A stretch of DNA of 64,000 bases from a virus. Lineage: Duplodnaviria; Caudoviricetes. How positions within the stretch are numbered: position 1 is the first letter of the stretch; each line of letters opens with the position of its first letter. The stretch is from positions 442-64,441 of IMG/VR virus record IMGVR_UViG_3300028591_000214. One strand, written 5' to 3'. Under the pieces are notes generated by a model. That model was not told the DNA's origin and did no database searches. It worked only from the letters and a program-made list of their open reading frames with translations. A program made the translations under genes and the position numbers. Below are positions 3,101 to 29,273 of this stretch, piece by piece.

Positions 3101-5083
3101 AACGGCCGTTACTTTATCCGGCAATTCTGGCCCAGCTGGATTCAATATAACATCTTTACTCATATCGATTTCATATTTTACAAAATCTGCAATTTTTAAA
3201 TGTTGTATATCTAAAATTTTTGTATAATCATACTCTTTTAATGATGCCTTTACAATAGCTTTACTGTTTCTCATTACGGGACCTTCATCATTTTCATCAT
3301 AAATGACATAGGGAGTTAATGAATATTCTTTCTGCATATTATTAACTACATAATCTACAGCATACGCATTATTTTTAAGATGTTCAAAATATACGCCTTC
3401 TCCCGTAATATCTATAATCCTACAGTTTACGCCTATAATATATTTTTCAAGCCATATTTTTAAATAAAACAATTTAGCCAAAACTTCTTCTTGACCGTAA
3501 TCAAAGTTCTTTATAACTTTAGGAAAATCTAATGTCCTGATAAATTTCTTATGATCTTCTCCATCATTTATTGTAAATGTACTTGAATCCGAATCTTCTA
3601 TATATTTTATCTTTTGATATGTAACTGTATCATCATTATCGTCTTCAATATTAAACCGATACATCATTGTAAGACGATTTAACTTTTTTAAATTAAGATA
3701 TTCTTCATATGTAAACCCGAATCGTTTAAGTTTAGATTGAAGAGTTTCACCAGTTCTCATATCAATAGAGATATAATTAACAGAATCTGTATTATGATTA
3801 TCTTCATCATTCATGAATTTATACCATTCTTTAAAGTATATATCATTATATCCCAAAAATTTAACAGCATTAATTAATGCCTTATATGTTCCAATATATG
3901 GAAATATTTTATCATATGTTAAAAATAATTCTTTTGATTTTCTGTTAACTAATTCATAATCATTTCCTTCTTCTAGTGGATCATATTCTTTAAATACATG
4001 TTGATAATCCACTGGATGAGGAATACCGAAATTCGCAAATAATGTTCTGTACCTGTCGTCTTCTCCTATTGCTGTTCCTTTAAAGAATATAGTACCTATA
4101 TAATGATATGATGTATAGTCTTTAGCTAAATTCTGCTTTTTTATATAAATTCTTAATTCATTTACATAAAGACCTTCTTCTTTTGCGCTAAATCCGACAG
4201 TTAATGTTACCGGGTCTATCCAATGTTCTTCTGGTTCTGTATCTATGGGCAAAGTCATATTATCATACCATGATATATCACTGTAATCCATTTCATTACT
4301 GAACATATCTAATTCTTCATTATCAGTAACAAAATATAATGATGTAACTATATCATTATCATCTTCGTCTTTTTCTATAGGAACATATGGACGCTTAAAT
4401 TTATTATTTTCATATTCATCCAATATGTAAAGAGTCAATGGGCTTACAAGTTCTACTGACACAGGATCAAGCATTACAGTAGACTCTAAATGCCAATAAG
4501 GATAATTGGAATTATTTACAGCATCTCCGTTATTATACCAATTGTTTATAAATTTCCAAAACTTTTCTAAATCTGCAGATTTTTTATTTATATTTTCAAA
4601 TTTATTTAAAACCTTATATTCAGGTTTTGAGTATAAAGTATCATCCAGATCATCTGATATCTCAGATGTACTGAAATTAAGTTTTAAAATATTCTTCTCA
4701 AAATCCTCCTGGGAATTATATAATGATTTAATGCTTACTATAAAAGGGTTTTCATTTAATGCATTTTGACGCTTTTCTTTATTTTTAGTAAGTTTAATAC
4801 TTGAGAAACGTTCAGTTATGCTTGCCTCCCAGTTATCATTATTAATCCTTGGATTAAATATCAAATAGCCATTGTCCCATAATTGATAACTATCATATAT
4901 AATACCCGGATTTGATATTATTACATTATTGTCCCCGTCAATATATCCAGTCGGATATATTTTACATGATTTATATGCATCATCTAATAAAGGTTCTTCT
5001 ATTCTCCAAGATATATCGAAAAATATATTTGTTTTAAGCTCTTCGCCTCTTGAATTGAAAAAAGATAAATTTGAAAATTTCAT
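107..5083 (-). CDS. Giant virion structural protein, baseplate wedge (gp7-like) candidate, 1658 aa
   Basis: Long intact ORF directly downstream of the gp6-like gene. Segment KIFPYIGTYKALINAVKFLGY resembles the GT motif of gp7/P2-I type wedge proteins. Late-promoter-like AGTAAATA upstream. Confidence 0.55.
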   Translation of the reverse strand: MKFSNLSFFNSRGEELKTNIFFDISWRIEEPLLDDAYKSCKIYPTGYIDGDNNVIISNPGIIYDSYQLWDNGYLIFNPRINNDNWEASITERFSSIKLTKNKEKRQNALNENPFIVSIKSLYNSQEDFEKNILKLNFSTSEISDDLDDTLYSKPEYKVLNKFENINKKSADLEKFWKFINNWYNNGDAVNNSNYPYWHLESTVMLDPVSVELVSPLTLYILDEYENNKFKRPYVPIEKDEDDNDIVTSLYFVTDNEELDMFSNEMDYSDISWYDNMTLPIDTEPEEHWIDPVTLTVGFSAKEEGLYVNELRIYIKKQNLAKDYTSYHYIGTIFFKGTAIGEDDRYRTLFANFGIPHPVDYQHVFKEYDPLEEGNDYELVNRKSKELFLTYDKIFPYIGTYKALINAVKFLGYNDIYFKEWYKFMNDEDNHNTDSVNYISIDMRTGETLQSKLKRFGFTYEEYLNLKKLNRLTMMYRFNIEDDNDDTVTYQKIKYIEDSDSSTFTINDGEDHKKFIRTLDFPKVIKNFDYGQEEVLAKLFYLKIWLEKYIIGVNCRIIDITGEGVYFEHLKNNAYAVDYVVNNMQKEYSLTPYVIYDENDEGPVMRNSKAIVKASLKEYDYTKILDIQHLKIADFVKYEIDMSKDVILNPAGPELPDKVTAVLWDSSLSRRYDNLLKEQISEKSYKMIEEIQLFGAPYAAPFILDEYFYELNANLPNGSMIELNDEWVGGTNIDEDLDIWTDNNQVISSDTLFISENEIYISNQDSSIGVNWQKNAPIIKAQKCNLRDITKNRWNQSLKYGVNEVFNVKENRYLYRFFSYNDDILGGPVLSNEYILFVPVKEKDLKNSKKYKDLINNMPRNLRSNQQRREAYINNAKNESYGKLTYTEDNFYEAPMIKLHNYKLMYNKEGIVYDFKDSDGNLFPIDDFVLEMIEGTFESNELPITDNEKLLEVLHFTSQNKPLFNSWESVWGDPDDGRYENLDTGNYVQNEQWVYPEYTYKTFPQKFYEIYDALITGIQEIWAQQKIFLNSLNHPSQTEINKQIAFIEEYKEKYKNIILSNIPEEDKPLYWKDEYENILNDRIKKAWDLYNTITNSKSLNEYNINYNNDYEENVIINKETPILSNRTGYWNLIAKAYDAYNNIFINDIDDQIYINGESPDLNAYTIYNSIKQNNDYNLNSYVADYSLLDASAVLDNEPRFPKNYRLYGINCIGNERIRYDNVSYIYDTVKAGDYVIFNNFTNRIFGSLPNINQTSSVEASNEYDGTIKLWKHNYNLDSVNMTTDTYYGIVLYNEKKMQLFYDKPILVSGKWINDANTEEFHSYKIKYLYEEENEINEIKKYINAYNENSWIKAFLINIQQYNINPSTGIFNDPSTGNSIISFKLESVYSGYSIFNKNQVIKLVYTKTTDKLYDWSRNIENEYIASVSYRIKDVNIISRGTEYYVNIELYGRINTNLLINHYYNNYLTKSIFYKDSDYRNLIEKELIDKINITLCYANISPVSYTEKIKYNGWEESLTTAGFRIDKNNKFLNDYIDSGYSGYRIDFDPVNALNVWNKDAFKDISIYKYPQDQGTIINIGDSIILEADDKNKVLSTRNNLYYYWTILNNFIKVENNTLYKFINRYVCITPEFFEKYDITGSITDIYGNILKNKTSSKFFVQ

Positions 5084-23651: not shown

Positions 23652-23744
23652 TTTAAAATCATGTTTTTAGTATTTACTTATAAAATAAAGATTATCTATA
23701 AAAACAATTTAAACTTTTGGCTATTAATATATTTTAATATATAC

Positions 23745-25319
23745 ATGGTTTTTGATATAACAGATGATAATAAGTTTATTATAGTTAAGGACGCGAATAA
23801 ATTAGAACTTAACCAATTAAGGCTGTCTCTTACAAGAGATTTGCCTTCAGCTTATATATTATCTAAAATAAGACCTGATCTAGAAACTAAAAAATGTTTC
23901 ATGAATAATTTCGGCATGATTCCTATTGGTTTATGGCTTATGGTTATTAATATATGTAAACAATATGGATATGCATGTGTATTTACAGATAAATTTAAAA
24001 CATATATTTCCATAAATCAAGATTTTAAATATGAAGATTTCAAGAAATATATAGAAAATTTATTTAAAGATTCTGACTCATTTTTTCCGAAAGATTATCA
24101 GATAGAATCCGCGTATAAGGCATTGAAATATAAAAAATGCTGTATTGAGATTTCTACATCTGGAGGTAAAACGCTTATATCATATATTATAGTAAAATAT
24201 ATGATGTCTTTAGGAATTAAGAATATTTTATATATTGTCCCTTCTATTGATTTAGCTTCACAATCTGCGGAGAAATATTATCAGTATGACGGTTTAATTA
24301 AATCCGATACAGATTATATAATAGCGGAGCTTCATTCTAATTTAAAAAAGAAAGAAAAGGAACTGGTGGATAAATGTAATATACTATTTGCGACATTCCA
24401 GTCATTATCCAGAAAAAAACAGGATTTCTTTAAAAGATTTGAAGTTCTACTTATTGATGAGACCCATCATGCCGGTAATACATCATTAAGCAAAATAATT
24501 AATTTTTGTAAGAATTCTAAATATGTAATAGGAATGACTGGAACATTCCCTCATGAATCTAAATATGAAAATTTAATCATTCAATCATATATAGGGCCAG
24601 TAGTATATAGGCTGACAGCAAATGACCTTATAAATAAAGAAAAGTTCGCGACTCCGATTTATGTTATATATGATATTTTAAATTGGGCGACTGATAACGA
24701 AAAAATAACTTTATATAATTCCAGATTATCAGGATCAAAGACAGATGATTTTTCTATCGGGAGTAAACTTTTAAAAGAAGAACAGATATTTGTAAATAAT
24801 TCAAATAAGAGAATGAAATATATTTGTGATCTTGTTATTTCCAGTAAGAAAAATTCTATGGTTCTTTTCGGAGATATTAAATTTAATACGGGTCAAAAAT
24901 TTTATGAGTATATAAAAAAGAATTCTGATAAGAATGTTTATTACTGCGACGGAAACACTCCTTCTAAAAACAGGGAATATTATAAGCAGCAAATGGAAGA
25001 AGATGATACAGGAAATACTATAATAGTAGCATCTATCGGAACAATGGGAGAAGGTATTGATGTTAAAAACCTGTGGAATATATTCTTAATAAATACAGCA
25101 AAATCTGAAAGATTAGTTCGTCAGATTTGCGGCAGAGGCTTAAGAACATATCCAGGAAAAGATAAAGTTCTTTTATTTGATTTTGTAGATGATTTAAAAT
25201 ATGCGCCGAAGGGTATCAGATATAAAAGGGAAAATTATCTTTGGAAACATGGATGTGAACGAAAAAAGATTTATAAAGAACAGAACTTTCCAATTTTTGA
25301 AAGAAAAATAACTTTATAA
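23745..25319 (+). CDS. uvsW: UvsW-like SF2 DNA helicase
   Basis: KDYQ, STSGGKT, LLIDETHH, GMTGT, TMGEGID and QICGRGLR. True start is likely MVFDITDD at 23745 rather than 23661. Confidence 0.88.
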   Translation: MVFDITDDNKFIIVKDANKLELNQLRLSLTRDLPSAYILSKIRPDLETKKCFMNNFGMIPIGLWLMVINICKQYGYACVFTDKFKTYISINQDFKYEDFKKYIENLFKDSDSFFPKDYQIESAYKALKYKKCCIEISTSGGKTLISYIIVKYMMSLGIKNILYIVPSIDLASQSAEKYYQYDGLIKSDTDYIIAELHSNLKKKEKELVDKCNILFATFQSLSRKKQDFFKRFEVLLIDETHHAGNTSLSKIINFCKNSKYVIGMTGTFPHESKYENLIIQSYIGPVVYRLTANDLINKEKFATPIYVIYDILNWATDNEKITLYNSRLSGSKTDDFSIGSKLLKEEQIFVNNSNKRMKYICDLVISSKKNSMVLFGDIKFNTGQKFYEYIKKNSDKNVYYCDGNTPSKNREYYKQQMEEDDTGNTIIVASIGTMGEGIDVKNLWNIFLINTAKSERLVRQICGRGLRTYPGKDKVLLFDFVDDLKYAPKGIRYKRENYLWKHGCERKKIYKEQNFPIFERKITL

Positions 25320-25374
25320 AAATAAAAAAGAAAGTGTGCAAAGAAAAAAGAATTTTCAATATAAATTATATAAA

Positions 25375-25422
25375 AATTTACAAAAGTAAACTATTTCTAT
25401 TTTAAATTTACTTTTGTAAATT
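25375..25422. terminator. 16-bp inverted repeat hairpin downstream of uvsW
   Basis: aatttacaaaagtaaa (25375-25390) pairs with tttacttttgtaaatt (25407-25422). Confidence 0.6.
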
Positions 25423-25523
25423 ATGCGTATATTCTTTTTTCTTAATTTACATTAATTTAAACGACAGTTTTAAAAAAAGTTTAAAAATATCGAAAAAATT
25501 TTAAAATATATATTTTATAAATT

Positions 25524-26552
25524 ATGTCGAAAGATAAAAATATTGAAGAACAGACATTAGAACAATATGTAGCTGCACATGAAAATAATAATCAGCAACA
25601 AGAAGTTATAAAGTCTGATAACATGATTGGCAATGGAATTGTATCTGACGAGATTAGCAATCCCAAAGCATTTGACAGATATAAATCTGCGGCGTCAAAT
25701 CAAGAAGCTCGTGAATTACACAAAGCTGATATGGTGGCAACACAAGAAGAATTAGGAATGGGCTTTATTAATGTTCCTGTAGATACGCTTCCAAGTGAAG
25801 GAATGTTTTATCCACAAGGAACTAAATTTATGATTAGAGCCGCTAACGCAGGAGAAATTAAACACTGGTCAACTATTGAAGAAGATAATACTAATGATGT
25901 GGATGATCATCTTAATTATATTCTTGAACATTGTTTAAGAGTAAAAATGCCAGGTATTCCTAATGCGTCTTGGAAGGATCTTAAAGAGATCGACAGATTC
26001 TATCTTATTTTAAGTATTCGTGATTTTACATTTACAGATGGAAGTAATGAGCTTCAGCTGAAGATTAATGAGAATACTTATATGCCATTAAAAAAAGATA
26101 ATATTGATTTTCTTGAATGGAATCCAAAGCTTTTAAAATATTATAATGATGTAGACAGATGCTTTACATTCCCAACAAAGAATAAAAAAATTGAGAAAAT
26201 CAATGTTTATGTTCCGTGTCTTGGGGTTGGTAATTGGTTAAAAACCTATGGTCAACGTAAGCAACAACAAAAACAAGGTTTTGATATGGATTTCATGTCT
26301 ATTGCTCCTTTACTTCTTCGCGATTATAGGGGATTAAATGATATGGCATATCAATCATTTGTAGAAAGCTGTCAAGATTTCGGTCCATATGAATGGTCAC
26401 TTATCACGCATGTACGTGATTTAATGCAAGATTCAATTGACGCTAAATTTAAATATATTGATGACGGAGGAGTAGAGCAAGAAGCTCCGATTACCTTTCT
26501 CAAGGGCGGGCTCAAAGGATTATTCTTATACGACTTCGACAACCTTCTTTAA
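25524..26552 (+). CDS. Baseplate hub assembly protein (T4 gp26-like), 342 aa
   Basis: TLPSEGMFYP...FMIRAANAGEI and DLKEIDRFYLILSIRDFT resemble gp26-like/tail chaperone proteins. Confidence 0.7.
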   Translation: MSKDKNIEEQTLEQYVAAHENNNQQQEVIKSDNMIGNGIVSDEISNPKAFDRYKSAASNQEARELHKADMVATQEELGMGFINVPVDTLPSEGMFYPQGTKFMIRAANAGEIKHWSTIEEDNTNDVDDHLNYILEHCLRVKMPGIPNASWKDLKEIDRFYLILSIRDFTFTDGSNELQLKINENTYMPLKKDNIDFLEWNPKLLKYYNDVDRCFTFPTKNKKIEKINVYVPCLGVGNWLKTYGQRKQQQKQGFDMDFMSIAPLLLRDYRGLNDMAYQSFVESCQDFGPYEWSLITHVRDLMQDSIDAKFKYIDDGGVEQEAPITFLKGGLKGLFLYDFDNLL

Positions 26553-26595
26553 TGATTTATACCGGAGGTCTGTTGGTAAGAAATGGCTTGAAAAA

Positions 26596-27021
26596 ATGTC
26601 TTCTTACCAATGGACCGGCGGTAGATTTAAATGGGACGTAGATGTTGAGAAAGCTATTGATTGGTGCAGAATAGGAACTGATGATTTATGGCATCATTTA
26701 AATAATTGCTTTAAAGTTCCATATCAAAAACTAATGGAACTTATATTCATTTTTGGTAAAGAATTGCGTCAGCCATATAAAGATACATTAGCTATGCCAT
26801 GGTATGAAGTAGAAATGATGTGGCAAATTTATCAAGATTATATGGAAGAACGTAAGAAACATGATGAAGAGCAACAGAAGAAGTATGAAGAAGATTATGC
26901 CGCAACTAAGAGTTCAATGCCTACCACTAGCTCTATGAACCAAATGATGAGTAATCAGATGGGAGGTTTTAAAACTCCATCAATTCCTTCCCCGTCATTA
27001 CCAAACAATTTTAATTTTTAA
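26596..27021 (+). CDS. gp51-like baseplate hub assembly protein; frame open from 26476, possibly translated as a frameshift fusion
   Basis: FKVPYQKLMELIFIFGKELRQPYKDTLAMPWYEVEMM...QDYMEERKK resembles gp51-like small ORFs that follow gp26-like genes. Confidence 0.6.
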   Translation: MSSYQWTGGRFKWDVDVEKAIDWCRIGTDDLWHHLNNCFKVPYQKLMELIFIFGKELRQPYKDTLAMPWYEVEMMWQIYQDYMEERKKHDEEQQKKYEEDYAATKSSMPTTSSMNQMMSNQMGGFKTPSIPSPSLPNNFNF

Positions 27022-27055
27022 AAATTAAATTAATAAAATAATTTGTATATACAAA

Positions 27056-27466
27056 ATGGCAGAAGATTTAAAAAAGAATGAAATGGAAGAGGTTCAAAAA
27101 ACAGAGGCTGTTGATATGCCAGAACCCCAGGTTACTAACAGTGAAGAGGCTCCTGATACTATGCCAGAACCTCAGACAAAGGAATATGTTAAATATATTC
27201 GCGTAAAACCAAAGTTTAAGGAGATGCTAGAGAATACTATCGGTACTCTCGGCTATAATCAGAATATCGGCACTCCAGATACCCAGATTCAAGTTAATAA
27301 GCTATTCAAGATTATCGAAGATTTTGGTGATAAAATGCCTATCAATGATATGAATCAGTTTATTGTTCTTATGAGTCTCGCTCCATGGAAGATTATCCAT
27401 GAGTTTATGGCAATGATTGAGAAGCCAGAGCTTCAAGCAGAACTTTGGGAGATTTATGAAGCGTAA
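27056..27466 (+). CDS. Hypothetical protein, 136 aa
   Basis: Intact ORF with a duplicated MPEPQ motif, followed by a terminator. Confidence 0.7.
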   Translation: MAEDLKKNEMEEVQKTEAVDMPEPQVTNSEEAPDTMPEPQTKEYVKYIRVKPKFKEMLENTIGTLGYNQNIGTPDTQIQVNKLFKIIEDFGDKMPINDMNQFIVLMSLAPWKIIHEFMAMIEKPELQAELWEIYEA

Positions 27467-27484
27467 TTAAATATGCTAACAATC

Positions 27485-27527
27485 AGAAAGACATTTAGTT
27501 AAATTAAATTAAATGTCTTTCTTTTTT
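27485..27527 (+). terminator. Intrinsic terminator
   Basis: agaaagacattta pairs with taaatgtctttct, followed by a T run. Confidence 0.75.
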
Positions 27528-27562
27528 ATAAACTTTCATATATAATATTAATTTAATAATTA

Positions 27563-28015
27563 ATGGAAGAAGAAAATAAGGAAATAATGACAACAGAAGA
27601 TAAGTTGAAAAATATTCAGGATAAATGGGTTAACATTATTTCTGAATTAAATGTTAAAATGAAAGATCTTCCAGGGATAGATTCATTATTAAATGAAATA
27701 TATTCTAAACGTCAGGATTTATGTGATTATATGTTTTCTGTTTTAAATATATTAAGTAAATTAACAAGACAATATAAAACAAAATATGCTGAGAGATATA
27801 ATTATTATAAATTAGGAAAGAATGGATTAAGGTATAATAATGACAGTGCTATATCTACACAGATAGAAGCTGATTTAGAGGCGGAAAAAACAACAATAAT
27901 GCTTATATCAAATAATGTTGATTTCTGTAAAGAGACATTAAAGACAATCGATAATATGATATATGGCATTAACCAGAAAATAAAAGTGTATGAATTAATT
28001 AACGGAATAAAATAA
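27563..28015 (+). CDS. UvsY-like recombination mediator, 150 aa
   Basis: Helical protein with RYNYYK...LRYNNDSAISTQIEADL...FCKETLKTIDNMIYGI, directly upstream of uvsX. Confidence 0.6.
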   Translation: MEEENKEIMTTEDKLKNIQDKWVNIISELNVKMKDLPGIDSLLNEIYSKRQDLCDYMFSVLNILSKLTRQYKTKYAERYNYYKLGKNGLRYNNDSAISTQIEADLEAEKTTIMLISNNVDFCKETLKTIDNMIYGINQKIKVYELINGIK

Positions 28016-28016
28016 T

Positions 28017-29273
28017 ATGGCAAGACCAAAGAAAAATACGGAAAATATAGAAAGCGGATCAATTTTTGATCTGGTTAAATCAATAGATAATGAGGCAGAG
28101 ATTATAGCTGATAGTGCATATAGTAATATTAAGGATTATATAAGTACGGGAAATTATATTCTGAACGCTGCAATAACAGGGGATATGTTTAAAGGCCTGC
28201 CTACTGGAAGAATCTGTTCATTTTTTGGGCCTAATCAGACAGGCAAGAGTTTCCTTCAATGTTCAGTATGCCGTGAAGCTCAGAAGAAAGGTTATACTCC
28301 AATTATTCTTGACAGCGAAGGATCATTAGATGCAACATTTGTTTCAAGAATAGGAGTAGATCCTACAAAATGCATTATTAAACAGGTTAATACTATTTCA
28401 GAGACTTCTAAATTTATCGCTAATTTATGTAAGGCTTTGGAGGAACAGGAAAAGAAGACAGGTACACATGATAAAGTTATTATCGTATTGGATTCTCTCG
28501 GAAACTTGACATCAGATAAAGAAAAAGAAGATATTATTGCGGGTAACCAGAAAAGAGATCTTACAAAGGCACAAGAAGTCAAAGCAATGTTCAGGGTAAA
28601 TGCCACTCCTCTTGCGAGATTAGGAATTCTTTGGATTGTTATTAATCATTCTTATGCGTCAATTGGAAGTTATGTCCCCACTCAAGTTCAGGCATCAGGT
28701 TCTGGTATTCAGTATAATTCATCTGTGACATTAGAATTATCTACAAAGAAACTTGAGGATAAGGAGAATGATATTCTCGGATCTAAAAAGCAAGGTAATG
28801 AGACGGCCATTAAAAATGGTGTACTGATTACAGCAAAACCTGTAAAATCAAGGTTTACAATTCCAAGGAAAGTTTCGTTCCAGATACCATTCCATAAAAA
28901 GATGAATCCTTATGTGGGATTAGAAGAGTATTTAAATTGGGATAATGCAGGAATAATGTTTGGTAAATTATATACAGAAGCTGAATATTTGAAATTAAAA
29001 CCAGCTGAACAGAATCAATGTAAAGAATTCGAATATGAAGGAGAAAAGCTTTACGCGATGGAAAAGAAAACGGCTATGGGTAAAGTCGGCATGATTGTAA
29101 GACATTTAGGGCAGCAACTTTCCCTGCAGGATTTCTATTCAGAGAAAGTGTTTACTCCTGAATTTATGGAACAGATAAATGAGACTATTATAAAACCGAT
29201 GTTCCAGCTACCTGATCATGATTCATTCGATGATATTAAAGAGTTGGAAGAAATTATGCAGATTGAGAATTAA
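28017..29273 (+). CDS. uvsX: UvsX/RecA-like recombinase, 418 aa
   Basis: ISTGNYILNAAITG, P-loop GPNQTGKS, LDSEG, IVLDSLGNL, VINH and SGSGIQYNSS. Confidence 0.9.
   Translation: MARPKKNTENIESGSIFDLVKSIDNEAEIIADSAYSNIKDYISTGNYILNAAITGDMFKGLPTGRICSFFGPNQTGKSFLQCSVCREAQKKGYTPIILDSEGSLDATFVSRIGVDPTKCIIKQVNTISETSKFIANLCKALEEQEKKTGTHDKVIIVLDSLGNLTSDKEKEDIIAGNQKRDLTKAQEVKAMFRVNATPLARLGILWIVINHSYASIGSYVPTQVQASGSGIQYNSSVTLELSTKKLEDKENDILGSKKQGNETAIKNGVLITAKPVKSRFTIPRKVSFQIPFHKKMNPYVGLEEYLNWDNAGIMFGKLYTEAEYLKLKPAEQNQCKEFEYEGEKLYAMEKKTAMGKVGMIVRHLGQQLSLQDFYSEKVFTPEFMEQINETIIKPMFQLPDHDSFDDIKELEEIMQIEN

Follow-up and report, generated by a model that had tools for sequence, protein, structure and literature searches.

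A probable +1 frameshift at a conserved C_UUU_C site in the gp26/gp51-family hub-chaperone genes of giant phages

The window analyzed here, a stretch of 64,000 nucleotides with a G+C content of 28%, belongs to a 64.4-kb viral contig and carries two open reading frames (ORFs), here called ORF A and ORF B, at positions 25524 to 27021. ORF A (25524..26552, plus strand, from the ORF list) encodes a tail assembly chaperone of the gp26/gp51 hub family with 342 amino acids, and ends with AAC CTT CTT TAA, of which the stop codon occupies 26550-26552. ORF B extends from ATG 26596 to 27021 (141 amino acids) in the +1 frame relative to ORF A. This +1 frame is open from 26476, directly after a TAG at 26473-75, and contains no ATG, GTG or TTG between 26476 and 26595. 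The first-pass annotation of this DNA had described these ORFs, the open +1 frame and a potential fusion protein of 498 amino acids, all of which are confirmed in the sequence. It had also proposed that a +1 frameshift joins the gp26-like chaperone to the next ORF in the manner of lambda gpG/gpGT. The comparative evidence for such a frameshift is strong and it very probably takes place, but at a conserved C_UUU_C site 18 codons upstream of the stop codon and not at the stop itself.

ORF A is a tail or baseplate assembly gene of a giant gut phage, and its closest named relatives are found in the Prevotella Lak megaphages (42-50% identity). In a PHROG search, it matches only phrog_36717, a family of unknown function (2e-16). 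Two other members of this family, gp93 of Sphingomonas phage PAU and the homologue in LR756500, are detected by tblastn with ORF A (1e-9 and 4e-35, respectively), and both exceed the curated cut-off of 24.5 bits for PF12322 (T4_baseplate), with scores of 33.9 bits (E 3.4e-8) and 29.2 bits (E 9.4e-7). PF12322 takes in both gp26 and gp51 of T4, which are paralogues and are listed as hub assembly chaperones (PMC3004832). The AlphaFold2 (AF2) model of ORF A (predicted local distance difference test score, pLDDT, of 75) agrees with this assignment, as Foldseek retrieves PAU gp93-like proteins at approximately 1e-19 and, from BFVD, proteins named baseplate hub subunit, hub assembly protein T4-like, T4 gp51-like and Gp26 (E 1e-7 to 3e-3, probability 0.99-1.0). 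Direct membership of ORF A in PF12322 was rejected, since neither the profile nor hhalign supports it: ORF A itself has no match at E<=0.1, none of the 35 members of alignment A1 match, nor does anything in the whole 64-kb record, and hhalign comparisons of A1 with single T4 gp26, single gp51 and a 25-sequence gp51 alignment are not significant. Collectively, the fold and the two family members that pass the profile show that ORF A encodes a hub-assembly chaperone of the T4 gp26/gp51 family, and the label gp26-like given in the first-pass annotation is right. In PAU, Chryseobacterium phage MA9V-2 and Tenacibaculum phage PTm1, the ORF A homologue comes after the sheath and tube genes and is followed by a small ORF and then a gene for a tape-measure-like protein. 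Some of the structural relatives in BFVD are far longer than ORF A, e.g., a 438-residue protein of Achromobacter phage Motura and several Myoviridae sp. proteins of 430-670 residues, and these might be natural in-frame fusions with the extension domain.

The relationship between the two frames was followed in 178 loci from GenBank phages, IMG/VR, metagenomes and Logan/ENA contigs, which give 125 distinct junctions in 64 clusters at 80% identity and 16 clusters at 60% identity. In 119 of the 125 junctions, +1 is the frame of the longest downstream ORF, which passes the stop codon of ORF A without interruption, and in the remaining 6 the conserved B peptide is likewise in +1. This peptide often begins at the junction, so that an ORF A end of the type ...DPFGELV-stop is read in +1 as F|KIEFIF... 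and the corresponding Lak sequence as F|NSWNYKFLK. The first downstream ATG is typically found 15-37 codons beyond the junction. Moreover, the open +1 stretch is without an upstream ATG in 75 of 119 loci, and 26 of them lack ATG, GTG and TTG altogether. B therefore lacks a conserved start codon, and ribosomes must enter it from ORF A. In the largest clade, the +1 peptide encoded in the overlap, NLFSLFQIHLENWFKIEFIF, aligns with NNCFKVPYQKLMELIFIF of the B core in the window, which implies that the +1 frame is translated upstream of the ORF A stop. In the clade of the window, the 15 codons between the stop and ATG 26596 also evolve like +1 coding sequence, with 65, 45 and 104 substitutions at +1 positions 1, 2 and 3, and the only indel in this stretch is in-frame.

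A codon alignment of the ORF A tails revealed an in-frame Phe codon located 17-21 codons before the stop. In the window, this is codon 325, about 18 codons before the stop, and column conservation places the proposed shift site at ACC_TTT_CTC (26493..26501, plus strand), where tRNA-Phe would move from UUU (26496-98) to UUC (26497-99). The column is TTT in 122 of 125 loci and never TTC, against a background ratio of TTT to TTC of 973:555. Irrespective of the amino acid encoded, C is the first base of the next codon (CAA 60, CTC 17, CGA 13, CAG 7, CGT 5), which is never TTA or AGA, although these are common Leu and Arg codons. Similarly, the preceding codon ends in C, and where it encodes Asn it is AAC in 80 loci and AAT in 5, compared to a background of 73% AAT. 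All 125 loci contain a TTT in frame, with C or T as the next base and the +1 frame open from that point, and 114 of them have it in the canonical ...TTT_Cnn_GGn_GGn context. Where the canonical site is missing, another position of the tail carries TTT_C or TTT_T, again with an open +1 frame behind it, e.g., ATT_TTT_CTA in MA9V-2, AAC_TTT_TCA in L092, CGG_TTT_CAA in PTm1 and CAC_TTT_CGA in Flavobacterium phage MaF61, while in L135 a +1 stop follows the usual position and precedes TTG_TTT_CGA.

The extent of the open +1 frame also fits such a shift. In 58 of 114 loci, the nearest +1 stop is only 2 codons upstream of the TTC, and none of the 125 loci has a +1 stop between the site and the end of ORF A. 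Synonymous resampling predicts stops in 62.7 of 114 loci, the mean chance of +1 staying open being 0.45, and upstream control windows are open in 36%. Additionally, Ile-Lys in the overlap is never written ATA_AAA, which would create a TAA in +1 (0 of 99 compared to a background of 21%). Within the window ORFs, both in-frame TTT_C (41 against 59.5 expected) and TTT_T (89 against 126.5 expected) are under-represented, which is only a hint.

Based on these observations, we infer a programmed slip with two products. Most ribosomes would read ORF A to its TAA and make the 342-residue form. At the UUU codon of ACC_UUU_CUC, some ribosomes would slip one base forward while tRNA-Phe re-pairs with UUC, and in the window this slip may be favored by the 0-frame codon CUC, a rare Leu codon (2.1 per 1000), as the +1 codon UCA is common (22.9 per 1000 as TCA). 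The slipped ribosomes would then read the dual-coding overlap (26497..26552, plus strand), in which frame 0 encodes the 17-residue tail of the short form and +1 the linker of the long form, and would go on beyond the ORF A stop as far as 27021. According to the translations, the +1-frame section of the long product (26500..27021, plus strand) has 173 residues and terminates at TAA 27019-21. The predicted long product of 498 residues would thus consist of the first 325 residues of A followed by domain B, with its helical core and Pro/Lys-rich tail, and its predicted tryptic junction peptide after a slip at UUU_C is YIDDGGVEQEAPITFSR. If the analogy with lambda gpG/gpGT holds, the frequency of the slip would set the ratio of short to long form needed for assembly around the tape measure. 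No report of a frameshift in the gp26/gp51 family was found in the literature.

Several points weigh against this interpretation, for which the evidence is wholly comparative. In PAU, the ORF A stop is directly followed by a canonical AAGGAG-cgt-ATGATG, and the window has a usable ATG for B, so that some lineages could make B on its own. Changes in the overlap of the window clade fall mostly at wobble positions of ORF A, and in this clade the only constraint on the +1 peptide of the overlap is that its frame stays open. About half of the loci have CAA, a common codon, in the 0-frame A site, and a hungry codon can therefore not be what stimulates the shift in general. The idea of a conserved, stimulatory RNA structure downstream of UUU_C was also rejected, as RNAalifold predicts no pairs in 34 sequences, and folding downstream of the site gives a mean z of +0.11 over 102 sequences, equal to the controls. 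Furthermore, ORF A holds a second in-frame TTT_C at 26109 (GAT_TTT_CTT), where a +1 slip would end after 8 codons (26109-26134). Either these four nucleotides do not suffice by themselves, or a share of the slips is wasted.

The first-pass annotation had placed the shift at CUU_UAA (26547-26552), within the CTT CTT TAA at 26544..26552 (plus strand), and had assigned the stimulation to a hairpin 8 nucleotides downstream. CUU_U followed by a stop is the +1 motif of prfB, the product would be of the same length (498 residues), LR756500 also ends with CTT CTT TAA, and the window has both the motif and a very stable hairpin. The hairpin itself is real. Folding places it at 26560..26623 (plus strand) with ATG 26596 in its apical loop, and 21 base pairs, interrupted by a 2x2 internal loop, join its arms (26560-26582 and 26601-26623). 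Its minimum free energy is -33.3 kcal/mol over 78 nucleotides (z -6.36), and none of 200 dinucleotide shuffles fold as well. However, the hairpin starts 62 nucleotides beyond the conserved UUU_C site and is lineage-specific, which excludes it as the stimulator of the family. It is weaker in L013 (z -3.96) and L014 (z -3.29), which are 82% identical to the window and have the paired bases in another register, and it is absent from L015, L176 and L177 (z -0.89 to +0.79). CTT-TAA is not conserved either: it is found in few loci only, and L015 and L176, at 75% identity to the window, end with TTA TAA and lack the hairpin. In the family as a whole, 23 different codons occur at the end of ORF A (GTT, TTT, TGT, ATC, ATA, GAA etc.), most of which are unable to re-pair in +1, and the stop that follows is TAA (104 loci) or TGA (15 loci). 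In the window, no Shine-Dalgarno (SD)-like element precedes the CUU. A shift at the stop also leaves unexplained the invariant TTT_C and the stop-free +1 frame over the last 17-21 codons, and it cannot explain why domain B of the largest clade begins inside the overlap, upstream of the stop. This location of the shift is therefore very improbable. Two related ideas were rejected as well. Translational bypass from CTT 26547 to CTT 26587 is contradicted by the conservation of the residues right after the junction ([YF]N.WN, KIEFIF), and termination-reinitiation at TAATG would use an ATG in the wrong frame.

B might instead have a start codon of its own, and here it matters whether such a start replaces the frameshift or adds to it. 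The candidate in the window is the first +1 ATG (26596..26598, plus strand), which could give a free B of 141 residues. The leader in front of it (GAAAAAATG) is A-rich, as is typical of Bacteroidota-type starts, and the ATG lies in the hairpin loop (26583-26600), as does the in-frame ATG of L013 and L014 (approximately 3560-3575). Hairpin and loop ATG thus occur together in these three genomes and are both missing from the three sisters L015, L176 and L177, which may point to a caged internal start, and PAU and MaF61 have plausible B starts as well. If B were made only from ATG 26596, without any frameshift in the window phage, the start would be coupled to or throttled by the hairpin, with ribosomes that terminate at 26552 melting the hairpin base. 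There is only a small chance that this is correct, because B is without a start family-wide, and the window retains ACC_TTT_CTC and an unbroken +1 frame from it. In addition, relatives of 72-76% identity have no ATG here, yet keep the upstream peptide (R[ST]L.K.GW[LI]..), and the 15 codons ahead of the ATG evolve like +1 coding sequence as described above. Initiation at ATG 26596 in addition to the frameshift is possible, though on balance unlikely. In that case the hairpin may cage or couple an extra internal start that gives free B, which, with two lineages on each side of the comparison, is only a lead. The fallback offered in the first-pass annotation, that the hairpin governs independent initiation at 26596, is possible in this sense as an added, lineage-specific feature. 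A start further upstream, which would make B an overlapping gene initiated inside ORF A, can be given hardly any credence. Upstream +1 starts are often picked by gene callers, and an ATG does occur in the open +1 stretch of 44 of 119 loci, e.g., Lak-C1 at L002 3456, but in Lak this ATG arises incidentally from the codons GAT GAA in ORF A. The other 75 loci lack such an ATG, and the +1 frame frequently opens just 2 codons before the TTC. In the window, the TAG at 26473 and the missing start codons from 26476 to 26595 leave no place for such a start. A +1 frameshift at C_UUU_C consequently remains the best explanation of the locus.

Domain B is small and helical and leads into a tail rich in Pro and Lys. 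Its conserved core (NNCFKVPY...MPWYEVE...YMEE) is encoded at 26701..26860 (plus strand, alignments A2 and A4) and is modeled by AF2 with a pLDDT of 77-96. B has no match in Pfam or PHROG, and Foldseek against BFVD finds nothing below E 0.78. A library of 1.84 billion protein cluster representatives contains 537 relatives, nearly all called as proteins of 63-196 residues, and among 143 short cluster representatives the called starts fall at 24 different profile positions or inside ORF A. No in-frame A-B fusion was found among 120 ORF A homologues (all <=376 residues) or among the best 150 of the 537 B relatives. The first-pass annotation had called ORF B gp51-like. This label does not hold, as gp51 is a PF12322 paralogue of gp26 and B is without a PF12322 domain. 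Homologues of T4 gp51 carry PF12322 and a C-terminal PF28602, and B corresponds at most to the extra C-terminal part of gp51, a similarity that is not significant. The best hhalign match aligns 'LHIxPxEL..MpFYeI' of B with 'LLnPDEiFxFYqIN' of gp51 at E 0.13, and the B hidden Markov model scores gp51 homologues below decoys; B as the gp51 C-terminal extension was thus rejected and is an unproven lead. The GenBank starts of PAU gp94 (L009 3968-4105), PTm1 ORF-023 (L010 3899-4021) and MA9V2_060 (L011 3881-4057) lie inside or after the conserved B peptide, which at these loci reads ..[QP]PSE[IV]..[LM]P[FWY]YE... As the conserved frame reaches upstream into the ORF A overlap, these three proteins are annotated too short.

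The neighbors of the A-B pair in the window are a UvsW-like helicase (23661-25319) on one side and a UvsY-like protein (27563-28015) and UvsX/RecA (28017-29273) on the other, and no tape measure was identified near the pair. The order across 23661-29273, i.e., UvsW-like helicase, gp26-like A-B, small ORF, UvsY and UvsX, echoes uvsW-uvsY-25-26-51 of T4 despite a very large evolutionary distance. The small ORF directly 3' of B is kept in the window (27056-27466) and in Lak phages (L001 3708-4100; L002 3965-4369), and seems to travel with the A-B pair. It encodes 130-136 residues with an acidic N-terminus containing DMPEP(E/Q)TK, followed by ...Y.K.IKC..., and it has no Pfam or PHROG match.

The genetic code was considered as well. 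None of the 14 long ORFs of the window contains an in-frame TAG, and the window ORFs of at least 120 amino acids end with TAA (38), TGA (4) or TAG (1). The standard code thus appears to apply, unlike in Lak-B phages, and TAG recoding was rejected as the cause of the open +1 frame. In ORF B of Lak-B phages (L001 at approximately 3351, Lak-B5; L005-L007), an in-frame TAG is found where Lak-C has GAA, and the surrounding peptides, GLYWqCSDF in Lak-B and GLYWECTDF in Lak-C, fit with TAG being read as an amino acid there.

In the genomes of hundreds of giant phages, the second ORF is truncated in the annotation or has been given an arbitrary start. If the frameshift is true, these genomes would provide a large and naturally replicated set of UUU_C +1 sites in bacterial translation, with no RNA structure involved. 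The set includes phages of Bacteroidota, which barely use SD pairing, and would be useful for learning what sets +1 efficiency.

Among known systems, prfB (RF2) is the one on which a shift at the stop would be modeled, as it carries an autoregulatory +1 frameshift at CUU_UGA. The window resembles it in having CUU directly before the stop and the downstream ORF in +1. It differs in that there is no upstream SD element, the CUU-stop is not conserved, and the shift is placed 18 codons upstream. The A-B site resembles a group of +1 sites at which tRNA-Phe re-pairs perfectly from UUU to UUC, one base forward. UUU_Ynn is prone to +1 shifts in bacteria, including Yersinia YopN-TyeA (PMC5009743), and the corresponding sites are UCC_UUU_CGU in influenza A PA-X (PMC3498833) and UUU_CGN in amalgaviruses (PMC5052127). 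In these systems, as in the A-B loci, the preceding codon ends in C, and both TCC_TTT_CGA and TCC_TTT_CAA occur among our loci. PA-X requires no 3' structure, in agreement with our finding of none conserved. The A-B loci differ from these systems in their setting, a bacteriophage structural-assembly gene, and in the A-site codon, which is variable (CAA, CTC, CGA etc.) and not a fixed rare CGN.

In organization, the A-B pair follows the lambda gpG/gpGT system, for which conservation of the frameshift in tail assembly chaperone genes is described (Xu, Hendrix and Duda 2004, as summarized in PMC5009743). In both cases, the second ORF overlaps the first in one fixed frame and lacks a conserved start of its own, the slip site lies a few to about 20 codons before the first stop, and the long form would join the N-terminus of the short form to a new C-terminal domain. 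In cultured relatives of the window phage, the two ORFs are also located upstream of the tape measure. In contrast, lambda-type shifts are -1 at an X_XXY_YYZ heptamer, whereas the A-B shift would be +1 at UUU_C; the A and B proteins belong to the gp26/gp51 (PF12322) fold and have no detectable relation to gpG/gpT, and the window pair lies beside uvsW/uvsY/uvsX-like genes and not the tape measure. The canonical -1 heptamer is not the conserved motif of the A-B loci and is seen only in T4-related cousins. In Cronobacter phage LPCS28 (L179 1866-1872) and Rhizobium phage LG08 (L180 1866-1872), T_TTT_TTC is in -1 slippery phase at the end of the gp26-like gene, where ...GL.DFF (...GAT TTT TTC...) is followed by an open -1 frame of approximately 60-65 codons. 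Neither record annotates a frameshift. The B profile scores the LG08 -1 extension at 12.3 bits, compared to 8.2 bits for the best of 1120 shuffled decoys. These phages thus share with the A-B loci the gene family, a slip that would take place on a Phe run just where the PF12322 domain ends, and an extension of about 60 residues, while the direction (-1 instead of +1), the motif (heptamer instead of C_UUU_C) and the position of the site, about 9 codons further downstream in the alignment, are different.

T4 itself shares the C-terminal motif G-L-K-x-x-F...E-L-L-stop of gp26 with ORF A, and its uvsW and uvsY synteny resembles that of the window. However, gp26 and gp51 are encoded by two separate, divergently transcribed genes without a frameshift, unlike the window pair. 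Judged from sequence comparison, the A-B system would be a variant on the G/GT principle, in which a +1 shift on C_UUU_C in the gp26/gp51 family is widespread in Lak-like and other huge phages. We consider the chances about even that the gp26/gp51 family is the long-missing G/GT equivalent of T4-type and giant myoviruses. The short and long pair would then come from two genes in T4 and from a -1 slip at U_UUU_UUC in many T4-related phages, whereas Lak-like megaphages, together with hundreds of further huge phages that infect Bacteroidota and environmental hosts, would use a +1 slip at C_UUU_C. The hairpin-caged ATG in the lineage of the window may add free B. The direction of recoding would thereby have switched within one family while the product pair was kept. 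This would give the poorly understood gp26 and gp51 chaperones of T4 a testable role, as a short and long pair that, like gpG/gpGT, acts at the hub and the tape measure.

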